The notes: generated from the letters alone by a model not told the origin. Counted from the first letter of the stretch, positions 13,757 through 46,924 are shown. The stretch: DNA of 64,000 nucleotides from Dipteris shenzhenensis (GCA_047967505.1 CM106538.1), one strand, 5' to 3'. Made by a program: numbers and translations.

Positions 13757-13768
13757 TGGTATCAGAGC
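13757..13768 (+). promoter_or_regulatory. Primer-binding site complementary to the tRNA-iMet 3' end
   Basis: TGGTATCAGAGC immediately after the LTR. Confidence 0.92.
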
Positions 13769-22105: not shown

Positions 22106-25100
22106 TCATGGGCATTCTTCATTTGCGCTATCTCCTTCTACTTCCTCCCGGGCGAGCATCTTTGTGAACTCTGTAATGTGCGTAATAATTGGTTGCGGTA
22201 ATTTTATTTTGTCTTCTACATCATACCCCATGTGCTTCTTTGTTTTCTTTGACCTTGATTTCCAGGATAACTATGACTGTCTCTGTGGAAAGTCTTGAAA
22301 TTGCTTCATGGTTTGGGACCCATTCCTTTTTCAAACAACTACTATACAATGTACTGTTATCTTGGTTCTCCTTCCTGCCCCTTGGCTCATACCATACCGC
22401 TGTAAATGTTGTAGCTCTCCCCCAGTCATCCATGCTCACGTCAACTACTTTTGCAACCCAAAACTTCACGTTCTCATGTTCATCATCCGATGGTCGAACT
22501 GCAACAAAACAATGGACATCTATGTCTATTTGTGGCATAAACTCTCTCTTCTTGGGTCCACAATATGGACGTGGGAGCAACGATTCAAACTCATTTTCAA
22601 AGAGACCACATGCTGGACGCAAGTCATTACCAACATTTGGCCAAAATAAAGGCCGTTCTGCCTTAATATCATCTTCTCGCATTTTTGCAAGGTCCTTTAT
22701 CAATTGGTAGGTCTTGCTAATTACAACAGTAGTGTGTTCCTTCCAAGAGGGCTTCCAATCAGGAAATCTCCGGAGCATTTCCTCTTTGTATGCAATAAAA
22801 GCTTTTAAGCCTTCTATTTCACCTTTGGATTTCTCGCTGAATTCTTTTATAGGAGCCCATGTTGGATGCATTTCTTTGCTCGGGATTGAAGTTAAGAGAG
22901 AGTAAGGTTCTTCAGGTTCCCATTTTGTATCAAGAGAATAGTGTTGCCATTGCATCACTGGTTTTTCATCCTTTAAGAAAAATCGAAAATAGTGTGGAGC
23001 GCTATGACCAATCAGGGCATCACCACCTTTTTGTATGAAAGGTAGAATAAAGCTCTTCCAATCATACATCCTCTCAACCATTGAGCATATTGTTCCTTCC
23101 TTACGGCCACCAACTTGCCTCCCGCATTTTCTTATCAAGTCATCCATTGTCTCCATGTCCTTGTGTTTTAGTTCTCTTGAAACTGTGCTAAATACCTAAT
23201 CGATATCCTCATGTGTGTGCCCAACCAACAAAAACCCAACTTCAATCTCATTGAAGATTCTATGAGCGATTAGCATTGAGCAAAATGCAAAGAAGAGTAC
23301 ATTCTTATTCTCTCGTCCACAATTGTCTGCTTGTATTCTCAAAGTTGCTGGTAGGCGACCTTTTTCTGCATGTACATTGTGAATTGCCTTCATAACGGAT
23401 GTTACAACTTGATTGCTATCGTGTAGATGCAAGGAATCAATCCATATGTCTGCAAAAAACTTAAATCCGTGCACTAACACTCCACATAGATGTGTCTTTA
23501 AAAAGTATTTGCCTTGTAGCTTAGGTGGAGTGTTAACGAATCGAGGTAATGTTGTTGTATTTTGATCCATACCATCTACAATAATGCACATGTACTCATT
23601 TGGGTGAGAAATAGCTTGCTCCTTCCAAAATGCATATTTTATTCTAGAATGTCGAACAAGTCCATGATGAAATTCTCTCTTTCTTTTGTAAGCTTCTTTT
23701 TGTTCTGGAGATGTTGCACTCTCAAGTGCTCGCTTTAGATCATCACAGTCGTTGCACTTTGACATTTTTTGCCTCTTTGGGATTTTAACATGTCCAAAGC
23801 TTTTTTTCCAAAGAGTATACAAAGTATGAAAAGATGCCGGTGCATGCCCTCTTTGCCTCTGTGTTTCTCCAATAGAGTTAAATACTTCTTTTTTGGTCAA
23901 ACCTATCGGAAGATGCATTTCTGATAGGTGGGGTTGTGGTAAAGCATTTTCATAAATGTAATCTTTCAAAATTGCTGTTGCCGCAACCGTTGAGGCTCTT
24001 GTTTTGGGCCTTCCTATGTTTCCATGAATGTTAAATTTAACTCCATACTTTGCTTTATTAGCCAAATTCCAATATGTGCCATGTGATAATCCTGTAATAA
24101 TGCGATATGCATTATTGCATATACTTTTTCCATTTATAAGAGGCCTTATTTGATGTCCTGAACTTCGCCTTCTCTTATCATTTACAAGAAAGCAAGACAA
24201 TCTCGTGAGTAGGTATTCATTTCTTCTGCTTCCTTTCCTTTGCCATACATGTTCTCTACAACCCTTGATGTCATGTAAGTTAATGGATCGCATACATGTA
24301 TGCTTACAGCATGTAGATCGCATTGCTTTTAGCATAACATCTTCATTCATTACTCTTATTCTCTTTGGTTGCTTTTCTGGATCTGCCTGCACTCGTTGTC
24401 TTTTCATGCATCTGTATGTCCGTTTTGGGACCTTCTGTTCATTCTTATTTGGATTTGTGTAGTTCTCCTTGTAAGATTTATTTGTCACGTTGTTTTCATG
24501 AGATGTTGCATCCTTGATCTTATCACTCTGACAGTCAAATACTGAATATTCCTTTGTTGATGTCATCCTTGCTTTTGATACATTCGTCAAACCATTTGTA
24601 ACATTTACAAGTTCACAATCAAAGTCAAACACCGAATAGTCCTTTGTTGATCTCATCCCTACTTTTGATACAATCGTAGAACCACTTGTCACAATGGCAT
24701 TAGAGTGTCCCGAATGATCTTCAAACTCATCTATTCCTGAGAGAACATCACTCATTGATGCACTTTCTATGGATTTCATAACTCCATAGTCAGTGGTGAT
24801 AGACTGTCCAGAATGATCTTCAAACTCATCTATTCCTGAGAGAACATCGCTCATTGATGCACTTTCTATGGATTTCATAACTCCATAGTCTTGAAACTCC
24901 TCTACTCCAGAGAGAACATCACTCATTATACTATCGTGCATGATTTCCATAATTCCATAGTTACCTGCTTTGACACCAAGAACTTTATCAGTATCCATGA
25001 AGCCATCCATGCTTGAAGATATAACACTTTTCACATCTTTGCCCAAGTTCTCAATGTGCATGAACTCATCCACCCCGGATAAGGCATCACTTGTGAAATA

Positions 25101-25814
25101 TTTTTCTTTCTCGGTACCAATGAACTCATCGACTTCTGATAAGACGTCAGTGCTATAGTTGAGTGCATTGGAATCATCCATCTCTGAAGGAATAGAGCTT
25201 GGTACATTGGCATATTCTTTCAATTCTTTGATGTTGTAGTATACATTATGTTTATCATTAAAAACCACATGCCGAGTCTTTCCAATCTTTAAAAATTGCA
25301 TGCTCCATCTCAAATCCTTACCTACCTCATAGTAGGGACCATCCAATGACATTGAGTTATCATCCATACCATCATCAGTAACTTTTTGAATTCTCATCTG
25401 CGCAAATGTCCAGTGTTCAACTTGTTCAAATCCCAAGACTTGATCTTCTGCTACATACTTATTTGTAAATGATAACATTTGTAAAATATCTCCCACTCTA
25501 AAATCCAAAGATATGCACTTTGTATTCCTGATGACATGTGTTGGATAAGTCTCATCTCTGTCCCATGCAATAAATGCTTTGTTGGAAGTATTATAGGGCA
25601 TAACATCTCCAAGGATTTCCATATCCCCACACTTATGCTTTAGCTCAACATGTGCACTAAGAATCCTTGATACGATAACCGCTACCTTATCTTCGCCAAG
25701 TCTTCTAAAGTGACAAATAGAATTTCGATCACTTTCATGGATTGTAGCAAATGCAACTACTTCTCTTTTGCAACATAAAATCACCTCCATCCCCGGAATA
25801 AATTTTGTAGCCAT
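22106..25814 (-). pseudogene. Sola-like/DUF7869-type DDD transposase of element B (about 1230 aa; one nonsense codon and one frameshift)
   Basis: Likely ATG at 25814 after a ttgcag acceptor. Motifs IVDGMDQ, QADNCGRENKN and FLLVGHTHEDID*VFS; the TAG at 23196-23198 is in frame with ORF 22221-23156. A frameshift near 22270 restores SWKSRS...KIKLPQ, which parallels WSW...KVKIP in element A, ending at TGA 22106-22108. Confidence 0.9.
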
Positions 25815-25940
25815 CTCCTTTGTGAGTTTCCTCTGCAAACAAGCTGTAACAACCATTATAAAGAACATTAGTCTCTTCTCAATAATCTACTTTATTAATG
25901 ATTTAAAAATCCAGAACGTGTTTGAAAATTTAATTAGACA

Positions 25941-26734
25941 CTAACCAATAACAACCATAAACCCTAAACCCTAAACCGTAAACCAAAACAACCCTAAATC
26001 CTAACCAATAACAACCCTAAACCCTAAACCCTAAACCCTAAACCCTAACCCCCAAACCCCAAACCCTAAACCCTAACCCCCAAACCCCAAACCCTAACTC
26101 CCAAACCCTAAACCCTAAACCCCAAACCCTAAACCCTAACTCCTAAACCCTAAACCCTAAACCCTAACTCCCAAACCCTAAACCCTAAACCCTAAACCCT
26201 AAACCCTAACTCCCAAACCCCAAACCCCAAACCCTAACTCCCAAACCCGAAACCTTAAACCCTAAACCCTTAATCCTAACCCCCAAACCCTAAACTCTAA
26301 ACCCTAACTCCTAAACCCTAAGCCCTTAACCCTAACCCCCAAACCCCAAACCCTAACCCCCAAACCCTAAACCCTAAACCCTAACTCCCAAACCCTAAAC
26401 CCTAAACCCTAAACCCTAAACCCTAACTCCCAAAACCCAAACCCTAAACCCCAAACCCTGAACCCTAAACCCTAAACCCTAACTCCCAAACCCTAAACCC
26501 TAACTCCCAAACCCTAAACCCCAAACCCTAAACCCTAAACCCCAAACCCTAAACCCTAACCCCCAAACCCTAAATCCTAAACCCTAACCCCTAAACCCTA
26601 AACCCTAAACCACCAAACTCTAAACCCTAACCCCCTAACCCTAACCCTCAAACCTTGAACCCTAAACCCTAAACCCTAACTCACCAGACCCCAAATCCTA
26701 AACCCAAACCACGAAATCCTAAACCTTAAATCCT
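25941..26734 (+). repeat. Interstitial plant telomeric array, (CCCTAAA)n with variant units
   Basis: About 0.8 kb of CCCTAAA interspersed with CCCCAAA and CCCTAACTCCCAAA. Confidence 0.97.
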
Positions 26735-28014: not shown

Positions 28015-30170
28015 AAGAGAGAAAGAAAGAGAGAGGGAGAGAGACGAGAGAAGGGGGGGGAAAGAGAGGGGAGAGAAAGGGAGGGGGGAGAGAAGGGGGA
28101 AGGGGGAAAGAGAGGGGAGAGAGGGGAGAAGCAGCGAGGGGGGGGAGAGAGAGAGGGGAGGGGGAGGCCGCTGCCGCGAGGGGGGGAGGGAGGGGAGGGG
28201 AGAGGGAGGGGGGGCGGCGAGAGAGGGAGGGGGGGCGGGGATAGAGAGGGGGAAGAGGGAGGGGAGGCGAGGGTGGAGAGGGAGGGGAGGGGGCCGCTGC
28301 CGCGGCAGCGGCAGCGAGAGAGGGGGAGGGGGGCGAGAGGGAAGGGGGGAGAGAGGGGGCAGCGAGAGGGAAGGGGGGGGGAAGAGAGAGAGAAGGGGGG
28401 GGGGCCGCTGCCGCGGCAGCGGCAGCGAGAGAGGGAGGGGAGGGGAGAGAGAAGGGGGGGGGGGGGGAAAGGGAGGGGAGGAGAGAGGGAAGGGGGGGGA
28501 AGAGAGAGAGAGGGGGAGGGCCGCGGCAGCGAGAGAGGGAGGGGAGGGGAGAGAAGGAGGGGGGGGAAAGGGAGGCGAGGAGAGAGAGAAAGGGGGGGGG
28601 GCCGCGGCCGCTGCCGCGGCAGTGAGAGAGGGGAGGGGGGGGAGAGGGAGCAGCGAGAGGGAAGGGGCGGGAAGAGAGAGAGAGGGGGGGGCCGCTGCCA
28701 CGGCAGCGAGAGAGGGACGGGAGGGGGAGAGAAGGGGGGGGGGAAAGGGAGGGGAGGAGAGAGGGAAGGGGGGGGAAGAGAGAGAGAGGGGGGGGGGGCC
28801 GCTGCCGCGGCAGCGGCAGCGAGAGAGGGAGGGGAGGGGAGAGAGAAGGGAGGGGGGGAAAAGGGAGGCGAGGAGAGAGAGAAAGGGGGGGGGGCCGCGG
28901 CCGCTGCCGCGGCAGCGAGAGAGGGGGAGGGGGGGGAGAGGGAAGGGGGGAGCGAGAGAGGGGGGAGAGGGAAGGGGGGGGGGGGGCCGCGGCCGCTGCC
29001 GCGGCAGCGAGAGAGGGGGAGGGGGGGGTGAGGGAAGGGGGGAGCGAGAGAGGGGGGAGAGGGAAAGGGGGGGGCCGCGGCCGCTGCCACGGCAGCGAGA
29101 GAGGGAGAGGGGGGATAGGGAAGGGGGGGCGGCCGCGGCAGCGAGAGAGGGGGAGGGGGGGGAGAGGGAAGGGGGGAGGGGCCGGGGGCAGCGAGAGAGA
29201 GGGAAGGGGGAGAGAGAGAGAAGGGGGAGGGGCCGTGGCCGCTGCCGCGGCAGCGAGATAGGGGGAGGGGGGGGAGAGGGAAGGGGGGAGGGGGCGGAGG
29301 GAGCGAGATAGGGGGAGGGGGGGGAGAGGGAAGGGGGGAGCGAGAGAGGGGGGAGAGGGAAGGGGGGGGGCCGCGGCCGCTGCCGCGGCAGCGAGAGAGG
29401 GGGAGGGGGGGTGAGGGAAGGGGGGAGCGAGAGAGGGGGGAGAGGGAAAGGGGGGGGCCGCGGCCGCTGCCGCGGCAGCGAGAGAGGGAGAGGGGGGGGG
29501 GAGGGAAGGGGGGGCGGCCGCGGCAGCGAGAGAGGGGGAGGGGGGGGAGAGGGAAGGGGGGAGGGGCCGGGGGCAGCGAGAGAGAGGGAAGGGGGAGAGA
29601 GAGAGAAGGGGGAGGGGCCGCGGCCGTTGCCGCGGCAGCGAGATAGGGGGAGGGGGGGGAGAGGGAAGGGGGGAGGGGGCGGAGGGAGCGAGAGAGTGGA
29701 GGGAGAGAGAGAGAGAAGGGGGGGGGCCGCGGCCGCTGCCGCGGCAGCGAGAGAGGGAGGGGGGGGGAGAGAGAGAAGGGGGTAGCGAGAGAGAGGGGAG
29801 GGAGAGAGAGAGGGGGAGAGGGGGAGAGGGAAGGGGTGGGGAGAGGGAAGTGAGAGGGGGAGCCGCTGCCGCGGCAGCGAGAGAGGAGGGGGGGGAGAGA
29901 GAGTAGGGGGGAGATGCGAGAGAGGGGGGGAGGGAGAGAGAGAGAGAGGAGGGGAGGGGCCGCTGCCGCGGCAGCGAAAGAGAGGGAGGGGTGGAGAGAG
30001 AGAGAGAGAGAGGGGGAGGAGAGAGAGAGAGGGGATGGGGGGGGAGATCGCGGCAAGTGAGAGAGAGTGGAGAGGAGAGTGGGGAGCGCAAGTGAGAGAG
30101 AGGAAAAAGGTGAGGAGAAAGGAAGAGAGAGAGAGAGAGGGGAAATGAAGAGGAGGGGAGAGAGCAGACT
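28015..30170 (+). repeat. GA-rich array punctuated by the 16-bp palindrome CGCTGCCGCGGCAGCG
   Basis: About 15 full or single-mismatch copies between purine-only tracts, with two more near 31577 and 31744. Confidence 0.93.
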
Positions 30171-30229
30171 AAGATGAGAGGAAACGTAGACTAGAGCGGA
30201 GAGGAAAGAGAGAGAGAGAAGAGTGAGAG

Positions 30230-31050
30230 AGATGAAAATTTAGAGAGGGAGGACACGAGAAAGTACGATCGAGATAGAAAATCTTACCAATGAAGAGGAG
30301 AAATGAGTGGGCGACGATCGAGACAAGATGAAGAGATCGAGATAGAAAATCTTACCAATGAAAAGGAGAAATGAGTGGGCGACGATCTAGACAAGATGAA
30401 GAAGCTACGATCAATGAGGCATATGAGAGGAGATTGGTATGTGATTTAGTCTAAACTTAAACAAACAAAACTATAAACCTTGGTGTTTGATGAAAATTTA
30501 GAGAGGAAGGGCACAAGAGAGTACGATCGAGATAAAAAATCTTACCAATGAGGAGAAAAAATGAGTGGGCGACGATCAAGAAGAGATAAAGGAGAGATGT
30601 TTTGATGGAAGAATTTGGGAGCTACGATCAATGAGGCATATTAGAGAAGATTGGTGTGTGATTTAGTCGAAACTTAAACAAACAAAACTATAAACCTTGG
30701 TGTTTGAAAAAGAAACGTGTGGAAACTAGAATTTCAAAATTTCCCGCCTTTTTTTAAACTATGAATCCTTGTGTTTGAAAAGACAAACCTTGGTGTTTGA
30801 AAAGAGAAACGTGTGGAAACTAGAATTTCAAAATTTCTCACTTGAATCCTTGTGTTTGAAAAGACAAACGTGTGAAAACTTGAAAATTGTGATAAAAGAC
30901 AACCTTGTGTTTCAAAAGACAAACGCGTGGATGTGAAAATTGTGATAAAAGACAACCTTGTGTTTCAAAAGACAAACGCGTGGATGTGAAAATTGTGATA
31001 AAAGACAACCTTGTGTTTCAAAAGACAAACCCCTGGATGTGAAAAGACAA
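30230..31050. repeat. Complex tandem repeats inside element B
   Basis: Three copies of cgagata.aaaatcttaccaatga...atgagtgggcgacgatc, followed by roughly 48-bp units of gataaaagacaaccttgtgtttcaaaagacaaacgcgtggatgtgaaaattgt. Confidence 0.85.
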
Positions 31051-32705
31051 ATGTATGCTAAAAGCAAAACTTGTAGAAACTTCAATTTTAAATTTTTCTT
31101 TGTTTTTGAATTTAAAATGAGTTTCACTTTCATTTTTAATTTACTAGTTTAATTTAGACTATAATGCATTTTGTTTTGGAATATAAAGAGTATAATTTTA
31201 ATTTTATTACATTTTAAATTAAAATTTTAAAAGTAGTTTAACTTACATTCGTTATTATTACTTTAATTTATTTCTTTTTAGGGAGAATATTCGTTATTAT
31301 TACTTTAATTTATTTCTTTTTAGGGAGAATTAATATATTCTTCTAGGTAAATATTAAATTTTTAATTTTAAGTCTTGTTTTCTTTATTTTACGTTATTTT
31401 TTCATAAACTTTAAGTTAAACTACTTTATAGTTTTTATTATATAAATTCAAATTTATTAAGATTTTAACTTCTTATTAATGTGAATGTTCAATTCTTATG
31501 AGTTGTAAGTAAATTAAATATAAATTTTATCTTTTTTAAAATGAGAAGGAGAAGAGAGAGAGAGAGAAGGGGGGGTCGCTGCCGCGGCAGCGAGAGAGAA
31601 TGGGGGGGGAGAGAGAGAGAAAGGGGTGGGAGGATAATGTGAATGTTCAATTCTTATGAGTTGTAAGTAAATTAGTTTTTGAAAATATAAATTTTATCTT
31701 TTTTAATATGAGAAGGAGAAGAGAGAGAGAGAGAAGGGGGGGTCGCTGCCGCGGCAGCGAGAGAGAATGGGGGGGGAGAGAGAGAGAAAGTGGTGGGAGG
31801 ATGGGAGTGGGAGAGGGAGTGGGAATGGGGAAGGTGAAAGAATGGACGTGGGCGTGGGAGTGAGAATGGGGAAGGTGGGGTGGGAGGATGAGGGCGGCAG
31901 CGAGAGAGAAGGGGGGGAGAGAAGGGGGGGAGAGAGAGAGAGAAAGGGGTGTGAGTTTAAAAAAGATAAAATATAAATTTTATCTTTTTTAAACTCACAA
32001 CCTTAGTGTATTAAAAAGAATAATGGAAAGATTATTTTTTGCTTTTAATTCGCAACCTAAGGATATTAAAAAGAACAATGGAAAAGAAATTATTTCTTGC
32101 TTTTCTTCGCTTCGACGGTTGGTGTAGTCTAGATTAGCATAGATTAGTTTGTCCTTAGAGGAGAGAACTCCAAAAAAACCAATCAAAGCCATGCTCAAAA
32201 TTTCCCGACTAGTTCCTAATCGGAGTCAGTCCATTCGTTCACATTCACATTCGGTTTCACAGACACAACAACCCTACCATTTAAGCAACGATTAAGGTTT
32301 TTAAACTTTCAAGATGATTGAAAGTTGTATCAGTGGACATGACAGATTACAGTTGTGGAAGTTGACAGAGCATTTTACACTTATATCAGTTGCGGGAGTT
32401 GACAGAGCATTTTGTACTTATATATGACAAACTTCAAATTTGTATTCAGAGATCATTGTAAATCCTTATTTTTTTTCACATTTATGCTCTAAGCCTTGTA
32501 AAGCCTTTTAGGCTATTCCCAAAGCATTTATGCTCTAAGCCTTGTAAAGCCTTTTAGGCTATTCCCAAAGCATGAAATTGATACTTATATGATTAGGAAG
32601 AATACAAACTGGAGGTGTATTAATGGGACTCATTGTACTTTTGATTTTTCAAAGTAATTGTAGTTTGTCAAAGTACTTAAAATTTGTGTTGTGCTTGAAT
32701 ACAGG

Positions 32706-35700
32706 ATGGATCTTGAGGCTACAGCATTTGTCAATGGTATGTCACTGAAATACAATGGAAGAATTTATGCCCCAAAGGACTTCACAAACTGGACAGTTGT
32801 TGACACAACAAAGAAAGCATGGTTCTTGGTCTTAAGTAAAGGAAATCTCATTCTAGTGATGACAAAGAGAGAGTTGGAGAAAGATGAGTGCGCATCAAAT
32901 GTATCTTTCTCCAAGAGCAATTTGATTCAAGGGGGCACCTTAGTAGGAATAAAAATTGAAAAAGACAGCACTACAATGATGATTTACACAAAGTCAAGAA
33001 TGAGCAACAGATCGTTTCTTCTTTCTAAGAAAGATGCAATGCACTTTGTGATGCCGCCGCCAAAAGCACCTAGATTTCCTGAATTGGTTCCTGCATTGGA
33101 GATCCTTCAACATGTGTGGGAGGAATTTCCCATTGAGGAAGCAAGAAAAATGCAGTCAAAGATTATCCTTGAATACTTTCAGGGTGTCATCCAACAAGGT
33201 TCAACTTCATTGGAGGGACCTAAGGTGCAAGAATCCACACATGAGAAAGGAAGTGATGAGACACGCCATGTAGATTTGGTTCATGGTAATACAAATGAGA
33301 GAGGAAGTGGAGTGGATGAGACAGAACACATTGTAGCAATGGATGAGGGTCTTGTACACGTGGATGCTTACAAGGGATCTACATCTGAGACAGGAATTGA
33401 ATTGGTGGAGACCGGACATGCACATGCATCTCAGACAGAAATTGAATTGAGTGAGACACGACATGCATCAGATAAGACAGGACATGCACACACATCTCTT
33501 GTTCATGGTATTACTCACTTAGATGGTGTAACTCATGAAGTTGATGGAATAACAGAACAAGTGAAGCCCTTAAGTATACCTGAAGTTGAGGCAATAGAAG
33601 AAGAAGTAGGGCGATCTAAAGCAGTTCACATTGAGCCCCTAAAAAATAAACCTCGACGTCAAATGCAAAAGGCAAGTACTTCACGAGCTACAGTTCCAAG
33701 TCCTATAACTGGAAAAAGAGGTCGTTCATATACAAAGAAAGGGCAAAGAAGAGAAGAGGAAGAACATGAAGAGGATGCGGAGGGTCTTGAAATGGAGTCA
33801 GATCTAGAAGCAGAAATGTTATCAATGAAGAACCTAAATCTTCGCTTGAATGAGGCTGTGACAGATGAGGATCCAGGATATATATGGGGCCAGAAGACTC
33901 AAGTTATACATGCTTCATCAGTGGTCAAAGCAAGTGTCTTCACCAACAGCAGGACCTTAGATACAGCCTATGCTGAAAAGATTTTTCAGGCTTTGATTGA
34001 TGGAAAAAAACCAGTTGTTTCTAATTTGGTACTCCGTCCAAGAACATTTTGGCCAGTCATGGGAGATTATAGTCAATCCATCAATTTCTCTCAGCCTATA
34101 GATTTTGAGATGCAATTCACTAAGTTCCTCGGAAAACAAGTTCCCTCACTTCAAGAAGGACAGAGTTCAGTGAATGATCCAGAACGACATATAAGGGATG
34201 CCAAGAGAAATTTCTTAGCTCATTGTACATTTGAGGCAATAGATGGTCAGCACTATGCCTATGCTTGTAATGAGCGCTCTAGAGATGCATACAAGAAAGG
34301 AGAAATTACTTATCAAACTTTCGCGAGTGTGCCTCAATTTCACTACTATTCTGCATGCATCTGTATCTTCAAGAACGAGAAGAAATATTTGATTGAGTCG
34401 GAAAGACTTAATCATGACATTTATGCACTACGAAAAATCACCTCCACTTCAGAGATGTTGCTCAAAGCTAGGACCATATGGAAAACTTTTAATTCTCCTT
34501 TGACCACTCTCAAAAGAACTGCAACTAAAGTGGAAGCGGATAATCTTGTTGACTTCTACACATGCTTGAGTGCCATTGTACCAAGGGGAAAGCAGGAAAG
34601 AGCTGAGGTGATTACAAGCTTCAAGACAGTAAGGGATAGGTATCAAGACTACACAAGCATACTTTTCCGTAGTGATGAAGTTTTTCATCAGATCAAAGAC
34701 GTGTGTCTTGCATGTGAGAAAGGAGATGTTACATATGAGGCTCCATCATTGATTAAAGAGAAGGCAAAGAAGATTGAGAAAAAAGAGATGACAGCTCGGA
34801 TGTGGAGGCCTTTAAGAAACCTACCAGATAAATACGCAAGTCTTGCTGCAGAGAAATTAATGTCAAAAGAATGGTTTTTTGGCAAAAAGGATAAAGATCA
34901 TTGCATGGAAGATAACATCATCCAACAGGTGAAGCGTGATGCAGTAAAGAGTGCAATTGAATATTTATTGGGAGAAAAAAATATTCCAATCAGCCAATGT
35001 AAAATTGATCATAACATTGTGAGGCAGATGGCATCAGCTTTACCGTCAGCTAAACAGAAGGCTTGGGCGCATAAATGGGTGAAGGTAGAAGATGATGGAT
35101 CTGAAATTACTCCCTCTATGAGAAATGACATTCCGGAAAATGTGTATGCATATGCACAAAAAGTCATCAATAACCACACTCTCAGAAAAGAAAAGACTTT
35201 GAACAAGGGCTTTTATTTCATACATGAAATCATTTCAGAGTCTGGAAAGAGTGTTGAGTGCAAGGGAGTTTCATTGAGTGATTTTTTGTCCGACGACACT
35301 GCTTGGGAGAGACCTCAGCTTTTCTTTGTCTATGAAATATCAGCGGATGACATCCGTCCACTCCTTGACAGAATATTACATACCACCATTGGTAGAGTGG
35401 GACAATGTAATATAGTCATATTTGCTGATAAAGATGACAAGGAACAAATGTCTGCTACCCTAGAAAAACAATATGGCAATGAGCTCAAGATTTACAATGG
35501 GATATACTCAAGAAAAAGGGACAAGAGAGAATGCGGTCTCAAGATACAGAGTCTGGAAACCTTTTTCTTGTGCATGAAGAGCCCTTATAATGATCACTCC
35601 TTACAAAACAATATAAGAGGGAATGCAAAGAGATTGCAACTACTGCTGGAAGAGCATGAAGCTCCAAGTCCCCTCCATCGCAATGCAAATCACTATGAAA

Positions 35701-38465
35701 GGCCAGCAAAAAGTGCTGATCTTTTAATTAGTATGATGGAATTTTTGCTACCGCCTGGATGGGAAGTCACATTGTGCCGAATGGGACATCTGTTCGAAGC
35801 TCTTATCAGAAAAGGACACAATGTAAATATTATTGAGAGCCCTGCTTGCTTGGAATACCTTGATACCGTGGCTTCTCTCACAATAAAGTTTGATAAGAAA
35901 GGTCCGATCTCACATGAAGAGGATGACATAGAGCAGATCATGTACGATGAGAGCAAGAAAGATGATGAAAATGATCAAAGCTCTGGATATAATAGTGAGG
36001 ATACCAGCAATAGCAAGGAAGCAGAGGAAGATGGATATGACACTGACCTTGCCTCTGAAGGTTACATAAAAAGACCACGAAGATATGTAGAGGTATGAAG
36101 ACTTATGTTTAATTTTCTTTATTCATTTAAAGGTCTTTTTAAATTTATAATTAATTTAAAATTTTGAATCTCATAATTATTTTATCCTTTTATAGGAGAA
36201 GGGAGAGGAGGAGGATGAGGAGGACATAGTTGGAGCAGAGAATCATGAAAGCTCATCTCAAGAAAGCAAAGCTGCTCTGGCTATCCATCGGATGACTCTA
36301 GAAAATAATCATACATTGCAGCAAATGGAGAAGTCATTTCAAGTTAGGTTTCAAGTTCGAGAACAACCTCTTACTTTTATATTCGATGAAGAGGATATTT
36401 CAATCCTCATAAACTTCAAGAAAGAGGTCAATGACAAGGTTATAATAGCCATCCTCAGGTTTGACACAAACTTTTTACTGACTTTATGCTTTTGTATTTC
36501 CATTGGATCAAATGAACTAATATTCTTTTCTTTTTATTGCAGTATGGTTTTACAACAGCTTCCGCTATATATACAAAGATGTGCATATATGGTCGATCCT
36601 CTTGTTTCTAGTGTACTTAGCAATAAGGAGAAGACCATAGATGACATTTTTAAGTGGTTGCAACCTATTGATTTGACTGCGGCGCGAGTTATCTTTACCG
36701 CATATCACGAAGAGTGAGTATCAATCCCTACCTAGCTTATCTCTTACATTGTGGAGGATTATATCGAATAATAATTATTCTTAATTGATAATGCAGCTTG
36801 CATTGGAGCTTGGTAATTGTGGACATCTTAGCCAAGCAATGCTTCTTTGTCAATTCAATAGCATCTATCCATGGCAGTGTGTCAGAGTAAGTATAACCTA
36901 CTTGTGTCATAATTATGTCAATGAGATGCATCCTATGCAATACACACATTCATTTATGTTTTCTATTTTGATGTGTAGATCTGCTCGAAAGTTGGTAAGT
37001 GCTATAGATGCACTTATGCAAATGGAGGGTGACTTGGAAGATCAAATAGAGTATGTAACATGCCCTGCAGCGAAGCAGAATGATGACCACAGTTGTGGGT
37101 GGAGAGTTGGATATAACTGCTTCTTGCTCCTTGCTCAAATTTTTGATTTGAGAGGCGGTGAAACCTCATTGTCCACATATACAGACTTGCATCTGCAGGC
37201 ATTTATGTCATCTATCATTAAGACATTTATTGATAACGTGGTGGAGCATCCAGAGGAAACATTGGTTGCTACGCCCATAAGTTGTCCTGATGTAACCGCT
37301 GTATTGGACGAAATGGGGAGCTCTTCTGAGGTTAAGGTCATCATTAGCAAGCAACCTCGTGTTTTGACTTTTGGTAGCGAGGAAGTTACAATCCTCTCCG
37401 ACCCTTTGAAAGAGGCTAATGACAAAGTCATGATGGCCATCCTCAGGTTTGATATGAACATCTCTTGACTTGATACTTCAATCATTTGATTCAATCTGCT
37501 TCTAACATTTGTTTATTTATTGCTGCAGTACGGTTATATCTCATTTTCCTAGATCAGTACAGAATCGCGTCTGTATGCTCGATTCTCTTCTTTCAGCTGT
37601 ACTTAGTGATACCAAGAAGACAGTAGATGATGTTTGTTCAATTCTACAACCTTTAGACTTGGATGGCATACTACTTGTCTTTATGCCATACTATGAGAAG
37701 TAAGTATGGTGTCAATCTTTCTTTTACTCTCTTATTTACAATATTGTGTCAATTAATACTTAATATTGTGATAAATCTTATCGCTCTTTATTGGTGATGT
37801 AGTTCACATTGGAGCCTTATAGTATGGGACCTTGATGACAACCATTGTTGGTTTGTCAACTCAATTACAGACTTTCACGGGGTGTTCAAGTAAGTGTTCT
37901 TTTATCATATCATTATGAACATGCATCAAGTTACTATTTACTACACAAATTTACTTTGTCATATGTCATGATGGACAGGTCTGCAAACAAGTTAGTTTCT
38001 GCGATTATGAAAATCAGGGAGCATCAAGACCAACCAAATTTCCAGACACGCCTCGCAGTGGACCAAAAGGACATGTTTAGTAGTGGGTGGAGAATTGCGT
38101 ACAACTTCATGTTGTATCTCAATGACATTTTTGAACATGTCTCCATAGAAGCATATACCAAGCTCGAGCTACAAGATTTTGTGGCTAAGACTGTTCACTA
38201 TCTAACTGCTATCATTGGGAAACAACATGATGGACTCAATGAAGAACCACTTGAATTAGAGACTCAATGCATTCTTCCTACACAAGAAGTGGAGACTCAA
38301 TGTGCATCTACAACATCACATCTTGTAAAGGAGGAAGAGATTAAGTCTATCCCGATTGCACCAGAAGTAGAATCTCAATGTACACCATCCACACAAGTAG
38401 AGACTCAATGTACTCTTAGAGAATCACAGCCTCAAGAGAACTCATCAGACTCTATTCAGTTGTAA
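32706..38465 (+). CDS. Eight-exon cargo gene, about 1707 aa: ParB-like region, degenerate DNA-methyltransferase-like region and two Ulp1 (peptidase C48)-like domains
   Basis: Predicted exons 32706-36092, 36196-36458, 36543-36713, 36797-36886, 36979-37446, 37529-37699, 37803-37889 and 37979-38465. All introns are GT-AG, 82-103 nt, and the frame is preserved (5124 nt). Motifs RTLDTAYAEKI...FEAIDGQHYAYA, HWSLVIVD...FVNS...KQNDDHSCGW and HWSLIVWD...FVNS...DQKDMFSSGW. Confidence 0.8.
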
Positions 38466-38554
38466 AACATGTAGAAAGAAACATGAGTCCTTGAAGATTT
38501 TTATCTTGTTTGTATCGATTAATGATAGTGTTTTTAAAACTTATGTTAAATGTT

Positions 38555-39762
38555 GCAATACATTAGGATATTTTATGATATTTTTTCATTACAATACATT
38601 AGGTTTTACTTTTTTGAAAGTCTAATTTATTATGTACAATACATTAGGTTTTACTTTTTTGAAAGTCTAATTCATTCTTATGTTCCATCACTTTATTTTA
38701 TAGATTTCAATGTACTCAAAATCTATCATTTATTATGTACAGCAAGTATCTCATGATGAGATTCTATTAATTATATCATTCTTGTGTTCCATCATTTTAC
38801 TTTATAGATTTCAATGTACTATCACTATCTTATATGTCTCAAATGACTCCCATTATGGTCTTGCATCCCATCATTTTATTTTATAATGTCTCGCATTACA
38901 ATCTTGCATCTAGTCATCTCGCATTACGGTCTTGCATCTGTAGTTCTATAAATTCCCTAGTAGTCGTTCATCTTCTATATCTCACCCGCAGCAGACACTT
39001 CTTGCACTTTGCTCTTCATGATGAGATTCTATTAATTATATCATTCCTGTGTTCCATCATTTTACTTTATAGATTTCAATGTACTATCACTATCTTATAT
39101 GTCTCAAATGTCTCCCATTACGGTCTTGCATCCCATCATTTTATTTTATAATGTCTCGCATTACGATCTTCCCTAGTAGTCGTTCATCTTCTATATCTCA
39201 CCCGCTCCTCTCCTCAAGCTTGCTCCTTCCTCTCCTCAAGCTTGCTCCTTCCATCTTGCCCGCTAGTAGTCGTTCATCTTCTATATCTCACCCGCAGCAG
39301 ACACTTCTTCCACTTTGCTCTTCTTACCTTACTCCTCTCCTCAAGCTTGCTCCTTCCTCTCCTCAAGCTTGCTCCTTCCATCTTGCCCGCAGCCTTGCCT
39401 CCTCTTCTCAAGCATACTCCTTTCATCTTGCCTTATCTCCTCTAGTTACCTTCCTCACTCTCGTTACCTTCCTCACCTCGTTCGTCTTCTATATCTTTCC
39501 TCACTCTCTTCCTCACTCTCGTTACCTTCCTCACCTCGTTAGTCTTTTATATCTTTCCTCACTCTCGTTACCTTCCTCACCTCGTTCATCTTCTATATCT
39601 CACCCGCAGCAAAAACTTCTTCCACTTTACTCTTCTTACCTTACTCCTCTCCACACTTCTTCCACTTTACTCTTCTTACCTTACTCCTCTCCTCAAGCTT
39701 GCTCCTTCCATCTTGCCCGCAGCCTTACCTCCTCTTCTCAAGCATACTCCTTTCATCTTGCA
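38555..39762. repeat. Nested local duplications and CT-rich repeats
   Basis: Repeated blocks such as catgatgagattctattaattatatcatt, gttcatcttctatatctcacccgc and cctcaagcttgctccttcc. Confidence 0.8.
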
Positions 39763-39768
39763 GCCATT

Positions 39769-40203
39769 ATGGATCTTTTTAAGGTAATCGATTCTGTCGA
39801 GCAAGCCATTAGCAGCCTCAAAGAATGGATTGCCGAGAACCAAGGAAAGAGAGAGGAGAGAAAGCAAAATCCAGCTCCATTAACCCAGTACGAGAAGGAT
39901 GACTTTGCTTGTCAGAAGGGCCTAGAGAAGGAAGAGGAAAGAAAAATAAGTATGGCTACTACTGAAATAGATAAATTGCAGTCATATAGGAGAGAGTTGA
40001 TAGACTTTCAAAGTGAGATATCTTCGCGTGTGGCTCGTTATGGAAGATTTTCCCCCGAGGAAGCGCAAGCCATTCGGAATAAACAAAGTGTTATGCAAGA
40101 GAAAATTCATCAATCCTTACTTCTCTTCTATAATTTTAACTACATCGATGAGGATGAGATGAGCTCAGCTCTTGAATGGGTTGAATTTAGGCTAAGGACT
40201 TGA
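39769..40203 (+). CDS. 144-aa charged, coiled-coil-like protein of unknown function inside element B
   Basis: MDLFKVIDSVEQAISSLKEW...VEFRLRT*. The ATG follows a ttgcag acceptor, and composition changes sharply from the repeat-derived upstream part of ORF 39079-40203. Confidence 0.55.
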   Translation: MDLFKVIDSVEQAISSLKEWIAENQGKREERKQNPAPLTQYEKDDFACQKGLEKEEERKISMATTEIDKLQSYRRELIDFQSEISSRVARYGRFSPEEAQAIRNKQSVMQEKIHQSLLLFYNFNYIDEDEMSSALEWVEFRLRT

Positions 40204-40745: not shown

Positions 40746-40749
40746 TAGT

Positions 40750-41950
40750 TTGGCATACATATTCATGCTCCCTCTATGATGTCCTGGGGCAGGCACCACT
40801 TGATATGTCCTCTATGCTTAGACCCACCACATGTCACTTGTTTACGAGACAAAAAATGTACGGGCTACATAACCAGAGATCATGAGATCATGAGATCATG
40901 AGGGACTGTGCACTGAGCAGTTTGCACATGGACAGGAGGTTTTGACCCCGGTTCTAGCACAGCTATCCAACCATGCCATATGCCATGGCTTCTGACCTGG
41001 AGCACTACCACCATAGTACCAATACACAAGGCAAGTGATCCCATGGACACTAGGAACTACCGCACTCTTATGATTTACCACACTTTGGCTAAGATATATG
41101 GGTCAATAATAGAGAGGGAGACCAGCAGCCACACAAAGGGTCACGAGCAATAGGCTCTTGGGTAGCAGGCAAGTTTTTCGAGACAACACTCCACATTGGA
41201 CCATATCTTCACCTTGAGGGCTATCATTGAGGAGGCAAAGTTGAGGCACCAAAAAGTCTACACTTGCTTTGTAGACTTTCATAAGGCATTTGATATGTCC
41301 TATGTTCCAGCCTGATCAAGAGGTTACAAGAGTTGCACCTCCTACATGATCTGGGGGTTATGAGTTTATATGAGTCCATCAAAGGGAGAGTACATGCCCC
41401 AGAAGGTCTATCAAATTGGGTTGAGAGCACTATCGGAGTGAAGCAAGGCTACCCCCTCTCACCAACACTCTTTGGGATTTATATTTGATGAGATCACATC
41501 CTTTAAAGATTGCCTAGGTGGAGAGAGTTCACTTTTGGTTGACCTGATGGTATAGATACTGTTATACATAGATGACATAATTATCCTCAGCAAAGGGATT
41601 ACAAAAACATCTACAGGCCCTAGAGGTGTTTTGCAAAGAGAGAGACTTGATAGTTAACCTTGGAAAAACTAAGATTATGATCTTCAACACCTCACGGGTA
41701 GTCATAGCTTCACGTATCAAGATGAGATAGTGGAGATAGTGTAGTCTTGCACATATTTGGGGGTAGTGTTCAATAGACCAAGTTTCACAATGCAGATACA
41801 GTAGACTCACACCAAATTTCATGATGATTCATGATGCAAGTATAATAGACATGAGGACGGGATGTCTTGGCTCAACGACTAAAGAGGCAGTGCTTCCAGG
41901 CACACTTCTAGGACCCTTCGACGAGGGGTTGGCTTTTTGACACACTGGTG
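40750..41950 (+). mobile_element. LINE, right part (reverse transcriptase), continuing 19690-21330
   Basis: Aligns colinearly with about 10745-11945. VKQGYPLSPTLF near 41438 and TYLG near 41751. Confidence 0.85.
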
Positions 41951-42924
41951 ATCTCATTGCTCAATCCATACCGTCAATCCATACCGGTTGCCTGTATCCA
42001 ATTCTATTTGCCATTGATGATGTTTAACAAGCATGACTATATGTCTGATATCATGGAGACTTTTGGTGGTACGGCTATCACCACAAAGCTCATAGGTTTC
42101 TTTTCGTGGATTGTCTCTACTTGCCTAAAAATCATGTGGGACTAAATATTCTCAATATTCACTCCAAGCATCCCTTAAGTGCATGCCTAGTTTATCATGA
42201 TGACTAACTTATGATGGTCAACATCTATCATGTCCATGGCAGCTAACCAGCTAACCATCATCGATTTAGAGAGTTTCTATCCTAGTATGGAAATCAAACT
42301 ATAGTTGTCTTATCATTGACCACACATATTGCTCTAATGATGCCAGGGTGCTAACATAAAGTCAAATGTATCACTTCTTCACTGGCCTTCATCACCATCA
42401 AGCTCACTTTCTTGAGAAGTTCTTCTTCACTGCACATATCTTGTCAGATAATATAAAGATTCTCTTATTGTGCATTTCTCACTTCCATGTGATCCAACTC
42501 CCACACATTGCAGGTGTGAAAGTGAGGTCTTGCTGCTAACAATTAGGGTTGGTGTGGATCATATTTTGTCTTCTTTATTTTTTTAAAAAAAAATCAAGCA
42601 ACTTAATGCAACATAATCAATGTATTTTAAAAGTTTCTTGAAACTTTTGGTTATCAAATATAGGAAATATTGCTATACCACTGGTATCATTCCTTACATT
42701 TCAATCTCATGAGAATGCACTACAACTTCAATTGTTATCCCTTTAGACTCTGGTGAGATATCATGCTTTTTCAAGGTTATAAGGAGTATCGTGCCTCGCT
42801 CACTTTTGTTTTGGTGATTTTGGAACACTCATTGTCTTAACTAGTAAGAAGATCTTTTGCATTTCACTCCACAATGTCGTGTAATAGATATGGACCTTGT
42901 GAGAGGAACCTTCACTTGCTTATA

Positions 42925-42925
<1 letters not shown>

Positions 42926-42964
<39 letters not shown>

Positions 42965-42969
42965 ACTCA

Positions 42970-43026
<57 letters not shown>
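42926..43026. repeat. (CT)n microsatellite
   Basis: Interrupted CT run. Confidence 0.95.
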
Positions 43027-44926
43027 TATCATTCTCAAATTGATTATCTTGCTCCTCTCATGCTCGTTTTTACCCTCTATATCTGTCAAGGGGTTCTCCT
43101 TATTATGTTTTCGTAGAGCATCTTCTTTAGGGGATTCATGACTGGAAAGTTACTTCTAAAGCATACATCCAAGGAGTATATGGATCCTAGCTTTATTTTC
43201 TCATATTATCCCCATATTTTTTAAATTTTGAAATGAATACATATAATTATATAAATTTATGTGAATTGCTTTGATTGAAATAGCTATTCTTTTGAACCTA
43301 CACCTTAGAGTAAATGTTTTTTGGTGCACCAAGGCACTTAGCCCTCTAAAGTTTATCATTTTATGGATACTAATATCAAGAAAAAATCATTGTATAGAAA
43401 CGTTAAATAACGAAATATTTGCTCCATGTTTCAAATTCCATGTAGAAGAATATATTCCTCCCATGATTCTTGATGAAACTCTATAGTTGATAGTATGTAC
43501 AACTTGCAATTCGTAATGAAGATGTATCCATAATGCAACATGTACAAGAGACCTAGTTGCAGTATTATGCATCTTAATTCATGAGGTGCTTCAAAAGAAG
43601 TTCCATTTATATAAAGGGGATTATTCTTTCTCAAATTTCTTCCCAAGACCGTGGCTACACTTCAAGATTGTGGGACACTCTTATAATTGTTTCTTTCCCT
43701 CTTGTGCTTCCTAAGCATTCTTTGTTTGGGTGGCTTAAATTTTTTATCCAGTGACCTTTCAAAATCTAACAATTTGACCATGGAACGTAGCCAAGTCCTA
43801 ATCGACCACATATGCATGATGCCATTTTGTAGTGAGACTATGTAAAAGAATAGAACTTTGAAGGAAATACCAATTTAAGTGCAATGTATAGACCTTTTAT
43901 GATCAAATATCATGGATATTTATGAATCTAAATTTAAAATGCACTAATCCCTTTGAACATTTGCCTCAGTTGAAAGCAAAGGATTTTGGGTTGATAATAT
44001 CACCCAATTAGGCTATGAATTTTCAATGGGATGTTTCAAAACAAAAACAAGTGAGAAACACTATTTTGCTTTCTTGCGTCAATCACACATTTAGAGATTA
44101 TTTTCTCTCTATCTCCTGGAATTCATCTATTGCATGTTGGAGTGAAATTCAAGAGATGAAATAGATGACTTCTAGTCATAGATAATATATTGTTGTTGGG
44201 CGGTCCAAATATGTAGGGTGGATCCGTATATATCTTTAAGCTCTTCACCTTAAGAAGTAATTAAGATTCCTTATTTGGTAATTAAGATTCCTACTTCTAG
44301 CTCTTCCATATGGTGTCATTACATTCACATATGAATGACCATGATAATTGAATCTCTTTAGACCCAATATATCAATACCTTGTCTAATTTAAATGTTGTT
44401 GGGTGGTAGCGTGGATCTTTGATAAAAGCTAGCTAAGGTTATAATTATTTGAGGTAAGATCTCCTATTGGTTGTTAGCCAAGCCATCTACATAAGCACCC
44501 AATAACTCTTCATGAGAAAGCTGAATTTCTTCTTGACAGCCGTATTTTGATTCTCACAAACAGAGTGAAGTGGTAAATTGCATGTATGTATAGGTTTTGT
44601 AAGTCGATAGATCATTTTTATTTTTGAGAGAGCTTTATCTTATTGTTGCAAGGCTAATCATTACATAAAACAACTAGCAAAGGAACCAAACCACATGAGT
44701 AAACACAATAGGACTAACGAGTTGAAGCTGTCTAATGGCTTAGTGCAACATGGAGAGAAAAATGCAAACAAAAGTGTGAGATAGAATTTTATTTTAGAAT
44801 CTTGATACCAATTTTGGAAAGAAGATTAAAACATTTAAGTCCAAAACCACACATGCATCTCACTACCAAATCTTTTTAAAGCTATAGAAGTGGCATAGCA
44901 AAATAGTAGTTTTGCATCACCAAAAA

Positions 44927-44927
44927 A

Positions 44928-44973
<46 letters not shown>

Positions 44974-44990
44974 GTGCGCGCACGCGCACC
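44927..44990. repeat. (CT)n(CA)n microsatellite
   Basis: CT run, then CA run, then alternating gc. Confidence 0.95.
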
Positions 44991-45745
44991 TCTTATGGGA
45001 CATATGGGTATGATCTAGGCAATAGCTATTGTTCACTCCTTAATGTACCAATTCTATGTGAGGTTATTCCAAATGCCACATCCCGGAGCATCTCAACTTG
45101 TGCACCACTAAGCATGTGCTCATACACACTCAAAAGAAATACAGAAGGGAGAAACTAGATTGGGAAATGGATTGTCACATAACAAAGAAACAACATTGAC
45201 AGGGCAGCAAACTGGGCATTTCCCTATGAATCCTTAGAGATGAAGTCTTGTCCGAGAAGAACTTGTCCAAATCTAACGTCTTCATGGGGCTGTACTTTGA
45301 TCGTCATCAACACAGTGAAGTTGCGGATAGCGTAAGGATTTCTTGATTGCAGGTCCTCTCATCTAGCGCAGCAACCCCACAAATACGATACGACTAACGA
45401 GATCGAGCTCCCTCTGGCTTTCACGCAACGCGTACGGCAAAAAATGCGGAGAATCAGTTCCGTGAATTCGTAACTGCGAATTTGGGTCTCACTTCGTCGT
45501 TACAATTCGAAGTCGTCGCACGCACATCCCATTTTTACACCTGACAAAATGCCAAACCGGCGAAGGGAACTAGATCGTGGACTGACGAAATGGGCTTGAA
45601 AACCCACGTTTGAAAAGCTTAGGGCAAAACGGCAAGAGATGCGATTTCAAAAATGATCTTATGTACATTGATTCCGTTTCGGAAAAGGCTTTCTGCAACC
45701 CGCCTTTGAATTCTCACGACACATTTGCGAATTTTGGGGCTTACT

Positions 45746-46279
45746 TCATCGATACAATTCCGACATCAATTTGAAGCGCGGCTTCGTGCCTTTCTCCGCC
45801 TCCGCCTGGGCCTCCCAATCCAAGGTTTGCGCATACTCAGAAAGATGCTGGTTCTGCGTGTACCTGGCGAGGGGGGAGGAGGGTGCAGCTGCTTGCAAAG
45901 CCCGATCGACGGCGCTTCTGTTGTGATCATCCAGCAAGCGAACGTCCGATGCACCGCCGTGAGCAGCTTGCAGCTGCACTAGAGCGGACTCGGGTGGGAG
46001 TCCTTTGCGGCGTCGGCTTCTCCTGGTAAGCTGGGGGGCGACATCGTCGATTGGGGGCCAGAGCTTGGACCAGCGACGATCGAATTCGTGGCCAAGGTCG
46101 AAACTGCAGCAAAATCAAGGAAATGAACGAGGATGAAGGAGATGAAATTATGCAGAAACGAGGGGGTAACCCTAGAAGGATCGATGGAGGAACCTGAGGG
46201 GCTCGGAGGAGAGGGGGATGACGACGAACAATTGGATGCCGGCATCGCCATGCTGAGTAGTGTGGCTCGTGTGCGCCAT
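45746..46279 (-). CDS. Possible two-exon host gene of unknown function (about 147 aa)
   Basis: Lies in a CpG-rich island. Exon 46279-46194, a 90-nt GT-AG intron (46193-46104) and exon 46103-45746 join in frame. A TATA-like motif lies near 46395 on the minus strand. No recognised domain. Confidence 0.35.
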
Positions 46280-46924
46280 AGCCACCAATTCAAAATACCT
46301 CTGAGTTTGTCTCTCTGCTGCTGCTCTCACGAGGATATCCTTCAAACATAATGCCACCCACAAAATGCTCCAATTTGAACCCCCCTTCTTCCATATATAA
46401 CCAACCTTCTTAAACTACTCCTACTCCTACTACGATCTATTGCTCACATCTCTCCCTTGTAGTTATCTTGTTGTTTCAATCGCCCATCCCAGGCACCTTT
46501 CACATCCCCCTCCACACGCCCACAAGTTCACCTATGATGGGATCCCGAGTCCCCTCTCGAAACATGCCATCCCTTCTATGTTGTAGCATCTCAATGCGTC
46601 GCTACCACTCTGCCTACCATAAAGAAAAAACGGTGGCTTTAACCTCTGCATCCATCCACACTCCTCCAGACGACTATGAATTGCCAGAGTGGGCGTCTTG
46701 CTACTGTCATAGTGGCACGATCCCACTTGTCTCTCGAAAAGTGCAATCCCATCTACGGTGCAAAATGTCACCCGGCCACCCATGACTACGACCACTATGA
46801 AAAACATTGTGGCTTTACCTTTACTTTTTTCTGCCTCAAGTGTGAAAGGAACATTCGTCCAGACGGGGATACTCACTTCACCTATCCAAACCAGTGTGAA
46901 ATTCCCTTAGCATGGGATCAAGAT

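Follow-up and report, generated by a model that had tools for sequence, protein, structure and literature searches.

A putative transposon-borne protein of Dipteris shenzhenensis with a predicted methyltransferase-like domain and a possibly ParB-like core

A single-exon open reading frame is encoded on the plus strand at positions 32691-36098 (stop included) of a 64,000-nucleotide stretch of the Dipteris shenzhenensis genome (GCA_047967505.1 CM106538.1), which was analysed over its full length and is referred to below as the window. The product comprises 1135 amino acids when counted from a GTG codon and 1130 amino acids from the first ATG at 32706, and this 3.4-kb frame is situated in DNA of ~39% G+C. 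Approximately 6.8 kb upstream, and divergently oriented, is a DDE-transposase-like frame of 1220 amino acids, and an array of short palindromes is localised between the two. An earlier note on this DNA had read the gene as a ParB-methyltransferase fusion carried as transposon cargo. The peptides which it quoted are present at residues 419-526 and 1001-1049 of the frame: the first pair comprises NSRTLDTAYAEKIFQALIDG (residues 419-438, nt 33945-34004) and FEAIDGQHYAYAC, while the second comprises HYERPAKSADLL, beginning at residue 1001 (nt 35691), and FEALIRKGHNVNIIE (residues 1035-1049, nt 35793-35837). The gene, its proposed parts and the two neighbouring features are the following.

32706..36098, plus strand: whole gene (open-frame translation; second copy in the public run X1)
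33903..34610, plus strand: conserved core, residues 405-640, with a motif order that is possibly ParB/Srx-like and language-model features resembling those of DUF3723 (family alignments, language-model search)
33942, plus strand: core motif TNSR (family alignment)
34026, plus strand: core motif LVLRPR (family alignment)
34230-34268, plus strand: core motif FEAIDGQHYAYAC, residues 514-526 (family alignment)
34353, plus strand: core motif ACICIFKNE (family alignment)
34395-34415, plus strand: core motif ESERLNH (family alignment)
35193..35915, plus strand: putative beta-class N4/N6 DNA-methyltransferase-like domain, residues 835-1075 (AlphaFold2 model, Foldseek, VIA-align, BFVD)
35316-35342, plus strand: strand QLFFVYEIS within this domain, at the expected position of motif IV
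35706-35840, plus strand: AKSADLLISMMEFLLPPGWEVTLCRMGHLFEALIRKGHNVNIIES within this domain, at the expected position of motifs X, I and II
22221..25886, minus strand: frame resembling a DDE transposase and matching DUF7869, interrupted by a single in-frame stop between 23195 and 23196 (Pfam PF25273, E 1.1e-33 and 1.3e-7)
28296..31758, no strand assigned: array of 19 copies of the 14-bp perfect palindrome GCTGCCGCGGCAGC (motif count against shuffles)

A second, near-identical copy of the gene is found on a 3577-nt contig of the public run X1, where it matches positions 32703-36276 and differs from the window gene by 36 substitutions and one in-frame 3-nt insertion (TGC). The codon analysis took in the 31 listed substitutions, which affect 27 codons, 14 of them synonymously and 13 non-synonymously. 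With site counts of 702 synonymous and 2703 non-synonymous, the dN/dS for these 31 substitutions is ~0.24 (binomial p 3e-4), and in the worst case, with all five unlisted changes non-synonymous, it would be 0.33 (p 0.003). The frame is intact, conserved across the two copies and, given the dN/dS of ~0.24 between them, under purifying selection. In residues 835-1075 alone, seven changed codons are synonymous and four non-synonymous. No paralogue of the gene was found elsewhere within the 64-kb window.

Ten relatives of the window's own protein (P0001) were recovered at E <= 0.001 in an exhaustive phmmer search of 1.84 billion representative proteins; of these, four reached 1e-10 and none 1e-30. 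They are mostly fragments from short contigs, and one of them, annotated as a hypothetical protein, comes from the lycophyte Diphasiastrum complanatum. The complete architecture recurs in P0008 (1097 aa) and P0012 (1199 aa), both of which are long. Word-index searches and metagenome scans gave no useful further relatives of P0001, and a sequence search of the Protein Data Bank (PDB) with this protein gave no match.

Residues 835-1075 were modelled with AlphaFold2 (AF2) from four sequences, without templates. All of the top ten rows in a Foldseek search of the PDB with this model are beta-class N4/N6 DNA methyltransferases (E 0.024-0.10, 215-260 columns), including TTHA0409, M1.HpyAVI, M.RsrI and M.BceJIV, with M.MboIIA, CcrM, M.PvuII and a type III Mod just behind. 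VIA-align, which is independent of Foldseek, aligned the model to 48,161 representative chains, and ranks 1-11 are likewise all beta-class methyltransferases (Z 7.5-6.0, rmsd 4.1-4.8), namely M.RsrI (Z 7.5, 176 residues aligned), M.BceJIV, M.MboIIA, M1.HpyAVI, TTHA0409, the EcoP15I Mod, 6k0w, M.PvuII, CcrM, the Mbo45V Mod and the rotifer N4CMT (Z 6.0). Unrelated alpha/beta folds rank after the methyltransferases at Z 5.9 or less, and middling Z values of this tool can occur without homology. Among the viral models of BFVD, named DNA methylases occupy four of the top five rows, the fifth carrying no name, and a 494-aa phage protein annotated as 'ParB/Sulfiredoxin' is found at rank 20. The circularly permuted Rossmann fold of these enzymes, with the motif IV strand first and helix X and strands 1-2 last, is seen here on a low-confidence model. 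Weight is nevertheless given to the fold call because this one permuted-topology family alone tops the rankings, over 162-210 of the 241 residues. Residues 835-1075 probably adopt a methyltransferase-like fold on the basis of this model. Of the AlphaFold and Foldseek check which the earlier note had proposed, this part bore fruit, the nearest structures being beta-class methyltransferases, whereas no usable structure of the ParB part was obtained.

The catalytic signatures of such enzymes are absent. Motif IV, (D/N/S)PP(Y/F/W), is found in none of the four sequences which contain the C-terminal domain (P0001, P0004, P0008 and P0012), its positions reading YEIS, INEL, FDCR and VDCR in the L-INS-i alignment, and the FxGxG of motif I is likewise absent from the domain in all four, in which the glycine loop reads LCRMGH, LYQMGF, VQGLTA and LVGLTN, with one glycine kept. 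An acidic residue (Glu/Asp) after strand 2 is conserved in all four. A motif scan of the whole window protein, which found neither [DNS]PP[YFWH] nor [FVIL]xGxG, confirmed the earlier remark that no DPPY or FxGxG is visible. The suggestion that the domain is degenerate fits the lack of catalytic motifs in all four family members with this domain. As for its being catalytically dead, the family-wide loss of motifs IV and I makes it likely that catalysis has been lost, provided that the fold is indeed methyltransferase-like.

The core comprising residues 405-640 is the best-conserved stretch of the family. In up to nine sequences the elements TNxR, a helix with LxLRP at its end, (V/I)DGQH..AC, a strand of hydrophobic character and ESxRxN are colinear, an order which we take to match that of the ParB N-domain, consisting of an NPR-like turn, an L..SI...G helix, a PI.VRP strand, a GxxRxxA strand-helix and ENxxR. 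The arginine which defines the ParB/Srx phosphate-binding motif (GxxR or DGxHR) is missing family-wide. The replacement of this arginine by tyrosine after GQH had already been pointed out for the window protein and was verified; Y, I, V or F is present at this position in eight of the nine relatives covering it and R in none, and the relative P0010 reads GQY in place of GQH. In P0006, P0008, P0009, P0011 and P0012 a glycine-rich F.G.GG.T.F is observed between the LRP strand and DGQH, where the window protein has a longer, glycine-poor insert. Within a larger AF2 model of 702 residues, the core has a pLDDT of 36-74, and searches with that weak model returned noise or helical bundles. A language-model search with residues 400-1075 is led by two Streptophyta clusters (0.96 and 0.93), and the first named neighbours are phage ParB_N + N6_N4_Mtase clusters (0.77-0.79). 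When residues 405-640 were compared with named clusters only, fungal DUF3723 came out on top at 0.95, accounting for 16 of the 30 hits and sharing 177 and 169 of 256 features with the core, and a ParB_N cluster followed at rank 15 (0.89). These neighbours serve as leads and not as proof, and a ParB-like core is plausible, with evenly balanced chances, on the motif order and these neighbours.

The frame at 22221-25886 shows the peptides IIVDGMDQ, ADNCGRENKN and GHTHEDID, which we take to be its DDE motifs. DUF7869 is unmentioned in the literature searched and has no PDB relative. Thirteen copies of the palindrome are exact and six carry one mismatch. Seventeen are located in 28296-29975 at spacings of 46-203 bp and two more at 31578 and 31745, and the palindrome occurs only between the DUF7869 frame and the gene and nowhere else in the window, where 0 copies are expected (100 shuffles). 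The array is a candidate binding site of the ParB-like core. The contigs of run X1 total only 2 Mb, yet the gene was assembled at a depth of ~18, and because of this many copies are suggested. These contigs cover the region from 32050 to ~41000 at depth 5-60 and nothing over 41531-46520, which may cautiously be read as a multi-copy element with its right end near 41 kb. Searches for the ends of such an element by inverted-repeat and self-BLAST comparison yielded only simple-repeat pairs, with no shared terminal repeats or empty site. The gene is likely transposon cargo, as had been claimed, in that the opposite strand carries a DUF7869 frame and the depth in the 2-Mb run is high; the element itself is not delimited, its ends not having been found.

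Taken together, the explanation that is somewhat favoured is that the gene codes for an accessory protein, other than the transposase, of a large DNA transposon which moves by cut and paste, and that this protein is a strongly diverged relative of the algal ParB-like plus N4C/N6A methyltransferase proteins. In such a protein, residues 405-640 would form a ParB/Srx-type module without the usual arginine after the histidine, and the C-terminal domain would no longer transfer methyl groups but hold DNA or read bases, and might yet bind an adenosyl ligand through the acidic residue conserved behind strand 2. The protein would bind the DNA of its own element, with the 14-bp palindrome array between the gene and the transposase as the obvious candidate target, and binding there may bridge or coat the element and so influence its chromatin state or transposition. 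The anti-silencing role which the earlier note had offered as an example would be speculative.

ParB-plus-methylase accessory proteins have been reported from the giant transposons of brown, green and red algae. That of Ectocarpus Sola1-1_Ec32 is described as a 1104-aa ParB-like + N4C/N6A methyltransferase protein encoded on the strand opposite that of the transposase within a 21.5-kb Sola1 element (Genome Biol 2025, PMC12477816). The window protein is similar to it in length (1135 aa), in the ParB-like-then-methyltransferase order proposed here, in its location on the strand opposite a transposase-like frame and in being proposed to act on the DNA of the element which carries it. The Ectocarpus methyltransferase is, however, recognisable and predicted to produce 4mC/6mA, whereas Pfam is blind to the domain here and the catalytic motifs are absent, and the present host is a streptophyte, with a relative in the lycophyte Diphasiastrum and atlas clusters labelled Streptophyta. 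By analogy with the Ectocarpus element, Sola1 may be guessed as the transposase superfamily of the DUF7869 frame. In the red alga Bostrychia, Plavaka accessory genes are described which code for PF01555 + SET (PAG2) and ParB-like + 2OG oxygenase (PAG3) proteins, the ParB call of PAG3 being weak (HHpred E 0.29) and arrays of inverted repeats being located beside this gene (10.1101/2025.02.11.637652). The Bostrychia elements resemble the arrangement proposed here in that giant DNA transposons bear ParB-like and beta-class methylase modules and in that the ParB call is likewise weak, and the tandem inverted-repeat arrays adjoining the ParB-like gene are paralleled here by the 19-copy palindrome array upstream. 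In Bostrychia, however, the modules are distributed over two proteins with other partner domains, and the elements are EnSpm/Plavaka, in contrast to the DUF7869 frame observed here.

The same domain order is found in phage and plasmid fusions of PF02195 and PF01555. These are only ~400-500 aa in size, retain DPPY and FxGxG and are recognised by Pfam, whereas the window protein has ~200 helical residues between the two parts and long N- and C-terminal extensions, and has lost the motifs. None of nine longer methylase frames contained ParB_N, none was found in four large viral records, and a YbdM-seeded phage search identified stand-alone ParB-like genes only and no ParB-methylase fusion. DUF3723 (PF12520) is described as a conserved auxiliary gene, of unknown function, in the fungal Starship giant transposons. 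It is alike in being a non-transposase gene on giant eukaryotic mobile elements, and differs in being fungal rather than streptophyte; the likeness is one of language-model features, PF12520 having given no match in P0001 or the 12 members at E up to 1. DUF3723 is mentioned together with ParB nowhere in the literature searched. A precedent for a methyltransferase fold being kept by a mobile element after the loss of its catalytic and substrate-binding residues is provided by the DIRS1 retrotransposons, the polyproteins of which are described as carrying an inactive methyltransferase domain (Iyer et al. 2016, PMC4738411), although this is a PCIF1-like group 2 methyltransferase in a different element class. 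The same account derives haptophyte methyltransferases from phage ParB-terminase loci, reports ParB-HTH-fused Dam-like enzymes in chlorophytes and chytrids, and gives few N6A methyltransferases for land plants (Iyer et al. 2016, PMC4738411).

A number of results weigh against the explanation favoured here. Neither domain is detectable by any sequence-based method: Pfam gave no match for P0001 as a whole, its two candidate regions or the 12 family members. PF01555 matched neither the protein nor its sub-regions nor the members at E up to 1-10, no ParB match was obtained in P0001 or its relatives with PF02195 or PADLOC, and scans of the same proteins with PHROG, NCBIfam and PADLOC gave nothing relevant. 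A family-profile search of the PDB returned 0 matches at E up to 10. The four-sequence C-domain alignment was compared by hhalign with 45 PF01555 phage and prophage proteins from viral contigs, for which E. coli YhdJ was the seed, with a probability of 0.08% (P 0.62), and the C-terminal sub-alignment had a score of 10.7, the median after shuffling being 10.6, with 94 of 200 column shuffles scoring at least as much. The alignment nonetheless fell in the expected register, with AKSADLL.. on KP..L, PPGWEVTLCRMGH on GD.VLDPF.GSG and GHNVNIIE on GR.FIGIE. For the core, hhalign against 60-odd YbdM-type ParB proteins placed DGQH on DGFHR and ESxRxN on IRHNRAR, with a score of 16.8 that was reached by 27 of 150 shuffles, and the nearest named language-model neighbour is DUF3723, with ParB_N behind. 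Of the fusion which the earlier note had proposed, the methyltransferase-like half is carried by a fold seen on a weak AF2 model, and the ParB half has neither an HMM match nor a significant hhalign score. The AF2 models are of low confidence, both for residues 835-1075 (pLDDT 57, pTM 0.63) and for residues 387-1088 (13 sequences; pLDDT 45.9, pTM 0.25), and all structure matches are under the confidence lines of the tools, with no Foldseek E <= 0.001 and no Z >= 8. Finally, the published algal proteins are likened by their descriptions, and the DUF7869 frame, the palindrome array and the gene make up a putative element, for which no terminal repeats or empty site were found.

These results lend some force to an unlikely alternative, in which the gene codes for a transposon protein of another fold, either DUF3723-like or a wholly new accessory factor, with the methyltransferase model an over-reading by AlphaFold of an alpha/beta pattern and the ParB motifs a product of chance. 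All profile tests being at chance level, the models reaching pLDDT 46-57 only, a Z of 7.5 falling inside the range of best matches typical of the tool without clear homology and DUF3723, a family of unknown function, being the top named neighbour of the core (0.95) would all be as expected. Chance would, however, have to account for one permuted family filling VIA-align ranks 1-11, Foldseek ranks 1-10 and the four named rows of the BFVD top five, where ordinary Rossmann folds are absent, with matches across 162-210 of 241 residues, and for an independent language-model search naming the same ParB_N + N6_N4_Mtase pair. The DUF3723 likeness also allows a bolder and quite doubtful proposal, in which the family would be to streptophytes and algae what DUF3723 is to fungi. 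The giant transposons of eukaryotes, from fungi to plants, would then have in common an ancient ParB-like module of phage origin, to which a dead beta-class methyltransferase is still attached in the present protein, and this module would bind palindromic arrays in the element and shield it from silencing. That the C-terminal domain is instead catalytically active on DNA or RNA, as a methyltransferase whose motifs are non-canonical, and that the protein marks the element carrying it in the way suggested for the algal proteins, is very improbable. The fold matches, the purifying selection in residues 835-1075, the conserved Glu/Asp after strand 2 and the retained loop glycine could all be accommodated by an enzyme, but (D/N/S)PP(Y/F/W) is found in 0 of 4 sequences, the domain is without FxGxG and PF01555 scores nowhere on the protein.

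It is also improbable that the gene belongs to the host, whether domesticated or without any mobile past, and merely lies among repeats with the DUF7869 frame and the palindrome satellite as unrelated neighbours. Purifying selection, the lack of a second copy within the 64-kb window, the failure to find element ends and the stop in the adjoining transposase frame are all compatible with a host function. An intron-less frame of 3.4 kb, relatives which are mostly fragments on short contigs, and the assembly of the gene and the downstream 5 kb at a depth of ~18 in a 2-Mb run, which would suggest many copies, argue against it, as do an architecture and an opposite-strand layout which mirror the transposon gene described from Ectocarpus.

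The remaining parts of the protein and the other features of the window are as follows.

32706..33902, plus strand: N-terminal part, residues 6-404, beta-rich at its start, followed by imperfect repeats rich in His, Glu and Thr, then by a basic stretch and an acidic run (sequence)
33714-33752, plus strand: basic stretch KRGRSYTKKGQRR in the N-terminal part (sequence)
34611..35192, plus strand: helical middle region, residues 641-834 (alignment, AF2 model)
35916..36095, plus strand: acidic, Ser-rich C-terminal tail, residues 1076-1135 (sequence)
976-2205, minus strand: second, diverged DUF7869 frame with DDE-like motifs (Pfam)
30267-30402, no strand assigned: tandem repeat of 68 bp x2, upstream of the gene
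30848-31045, no strand assigned: tandem repeat of 53 bp x3.7, upstream of the gene
31477-31802, no strand assigned: tandem repeat of 167 bp x2, upstream of the gene
32350-32423, no strand assigned: tandem repeat of 37 bp x2, upstream of the gene
32479-32573, no strand assigned: tandem repeat of 46 bp x2.1, containing AGCCT-TTT-AGGCT, upstream of the gene
36196-36717, 36785-37468, 37839-38465 and 39073-40203, plus strand: downstream frames on the same strand as the gene (open frames)

The N-terminal part (residues 6-404) has no family match and is mostly below pLDDT 50 where modelled. In the middle region the motifs RPLRNLPD (34806) and KR.AV.(S/N)A are conserved, and tails similar to residues 1076-1135 are present in the relatives P0004, P0008 and P0012. 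The 702-aa model of residues 387-1088 was rejected as fold evidence, its Foldseek rows being unrelated and VIA-align giving only generic helical bundles, at model residues 176-274. The predicted N-terminus of P0012, the start of which was set by automatic gene calling on an ENA contig of 3958 nt, reads M-ARTKQTAR. We take ARTKQTAR to be the exact opening octapeptide of the histone H3 tail, and judging from this N-terminus a histone-tail mimic may occur in the family; such a start is absent from the window's own protein. It would fit chromatin mimicry within the proposal that the family is a counterpart of DUF3723.

The two DUF7869 frames show no nucleotide similarity to each other, and the copies of the palindrome are embedded in a G/A-rich satellite. 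None of the downstream frames at 36196-40203 has a Pfam match, and they may represent further cargo of the same element. The frames at 36785-37468 and 37839-38465 are similar to each other and by eye contain H...AIDAL followed by Q.NDDHSCGW and DQKDMFSSGW, respectively, the Cys of this ULP1/C48-like motif being lost in the second frame (37839-38465). A ULP1/C48 protease is not claimed for either, Pfam giving nothing at E up to 10. The first two thirds of the product of 39073-40203 consist of Ser/Leu/Pro-rich tandem repeats and its end is coiled-coil-like, and length variants (skips of 275-376 nt) occur around 38640-39770 in the runs X1 and X2. A dispersed repeat of 1.1 kb is present at 10742-11822 and 40748-41792 in the same orientation (70% identical), the latter copy being located near where the X1 cover of the element stops.

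The window is plant-like in its CCCTAAA telomere-type repeats, purine-rich satellites and Ty1/copia fragments. An interstitial, degenerate CCCTAAA (plant telomere-type) array occupies 26500-26730 and is followed to ~27700 by a GGGAGT/GGGAGG-type satellite. The Ty1/copia copies at 14258-18558 and 59716-64000 are in opposite orientation and 88.8% identical over 4.3 kb, and LTR-like pieces of 86-88% identity are found at 13022-13757, 17831-18559 and 59716-60430.

To our knowledge, it is rare for a transposon to carry a protein which acts on the DNA or chromatin of the element itself. Accessory proteins of this kind are already in print for algae; what sets this copy apart is the far divergence, the apparently dead motifs under selection, the streptophyte genome and the adjoining palindrome array. 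If the gene product is indeed a diverged ParB-plus-methylase factor, the class would extend from algae into the streptophyte lineage, and a methylase module would have been kept by selection after its chemistry was lost, which would point to a DNA-binding or reader role. The link to DUF3723, if confirmed, would provide a first functional handle on a Starship gene family of unknown function, and the palindrome array offers a directly testable candidate binding target.

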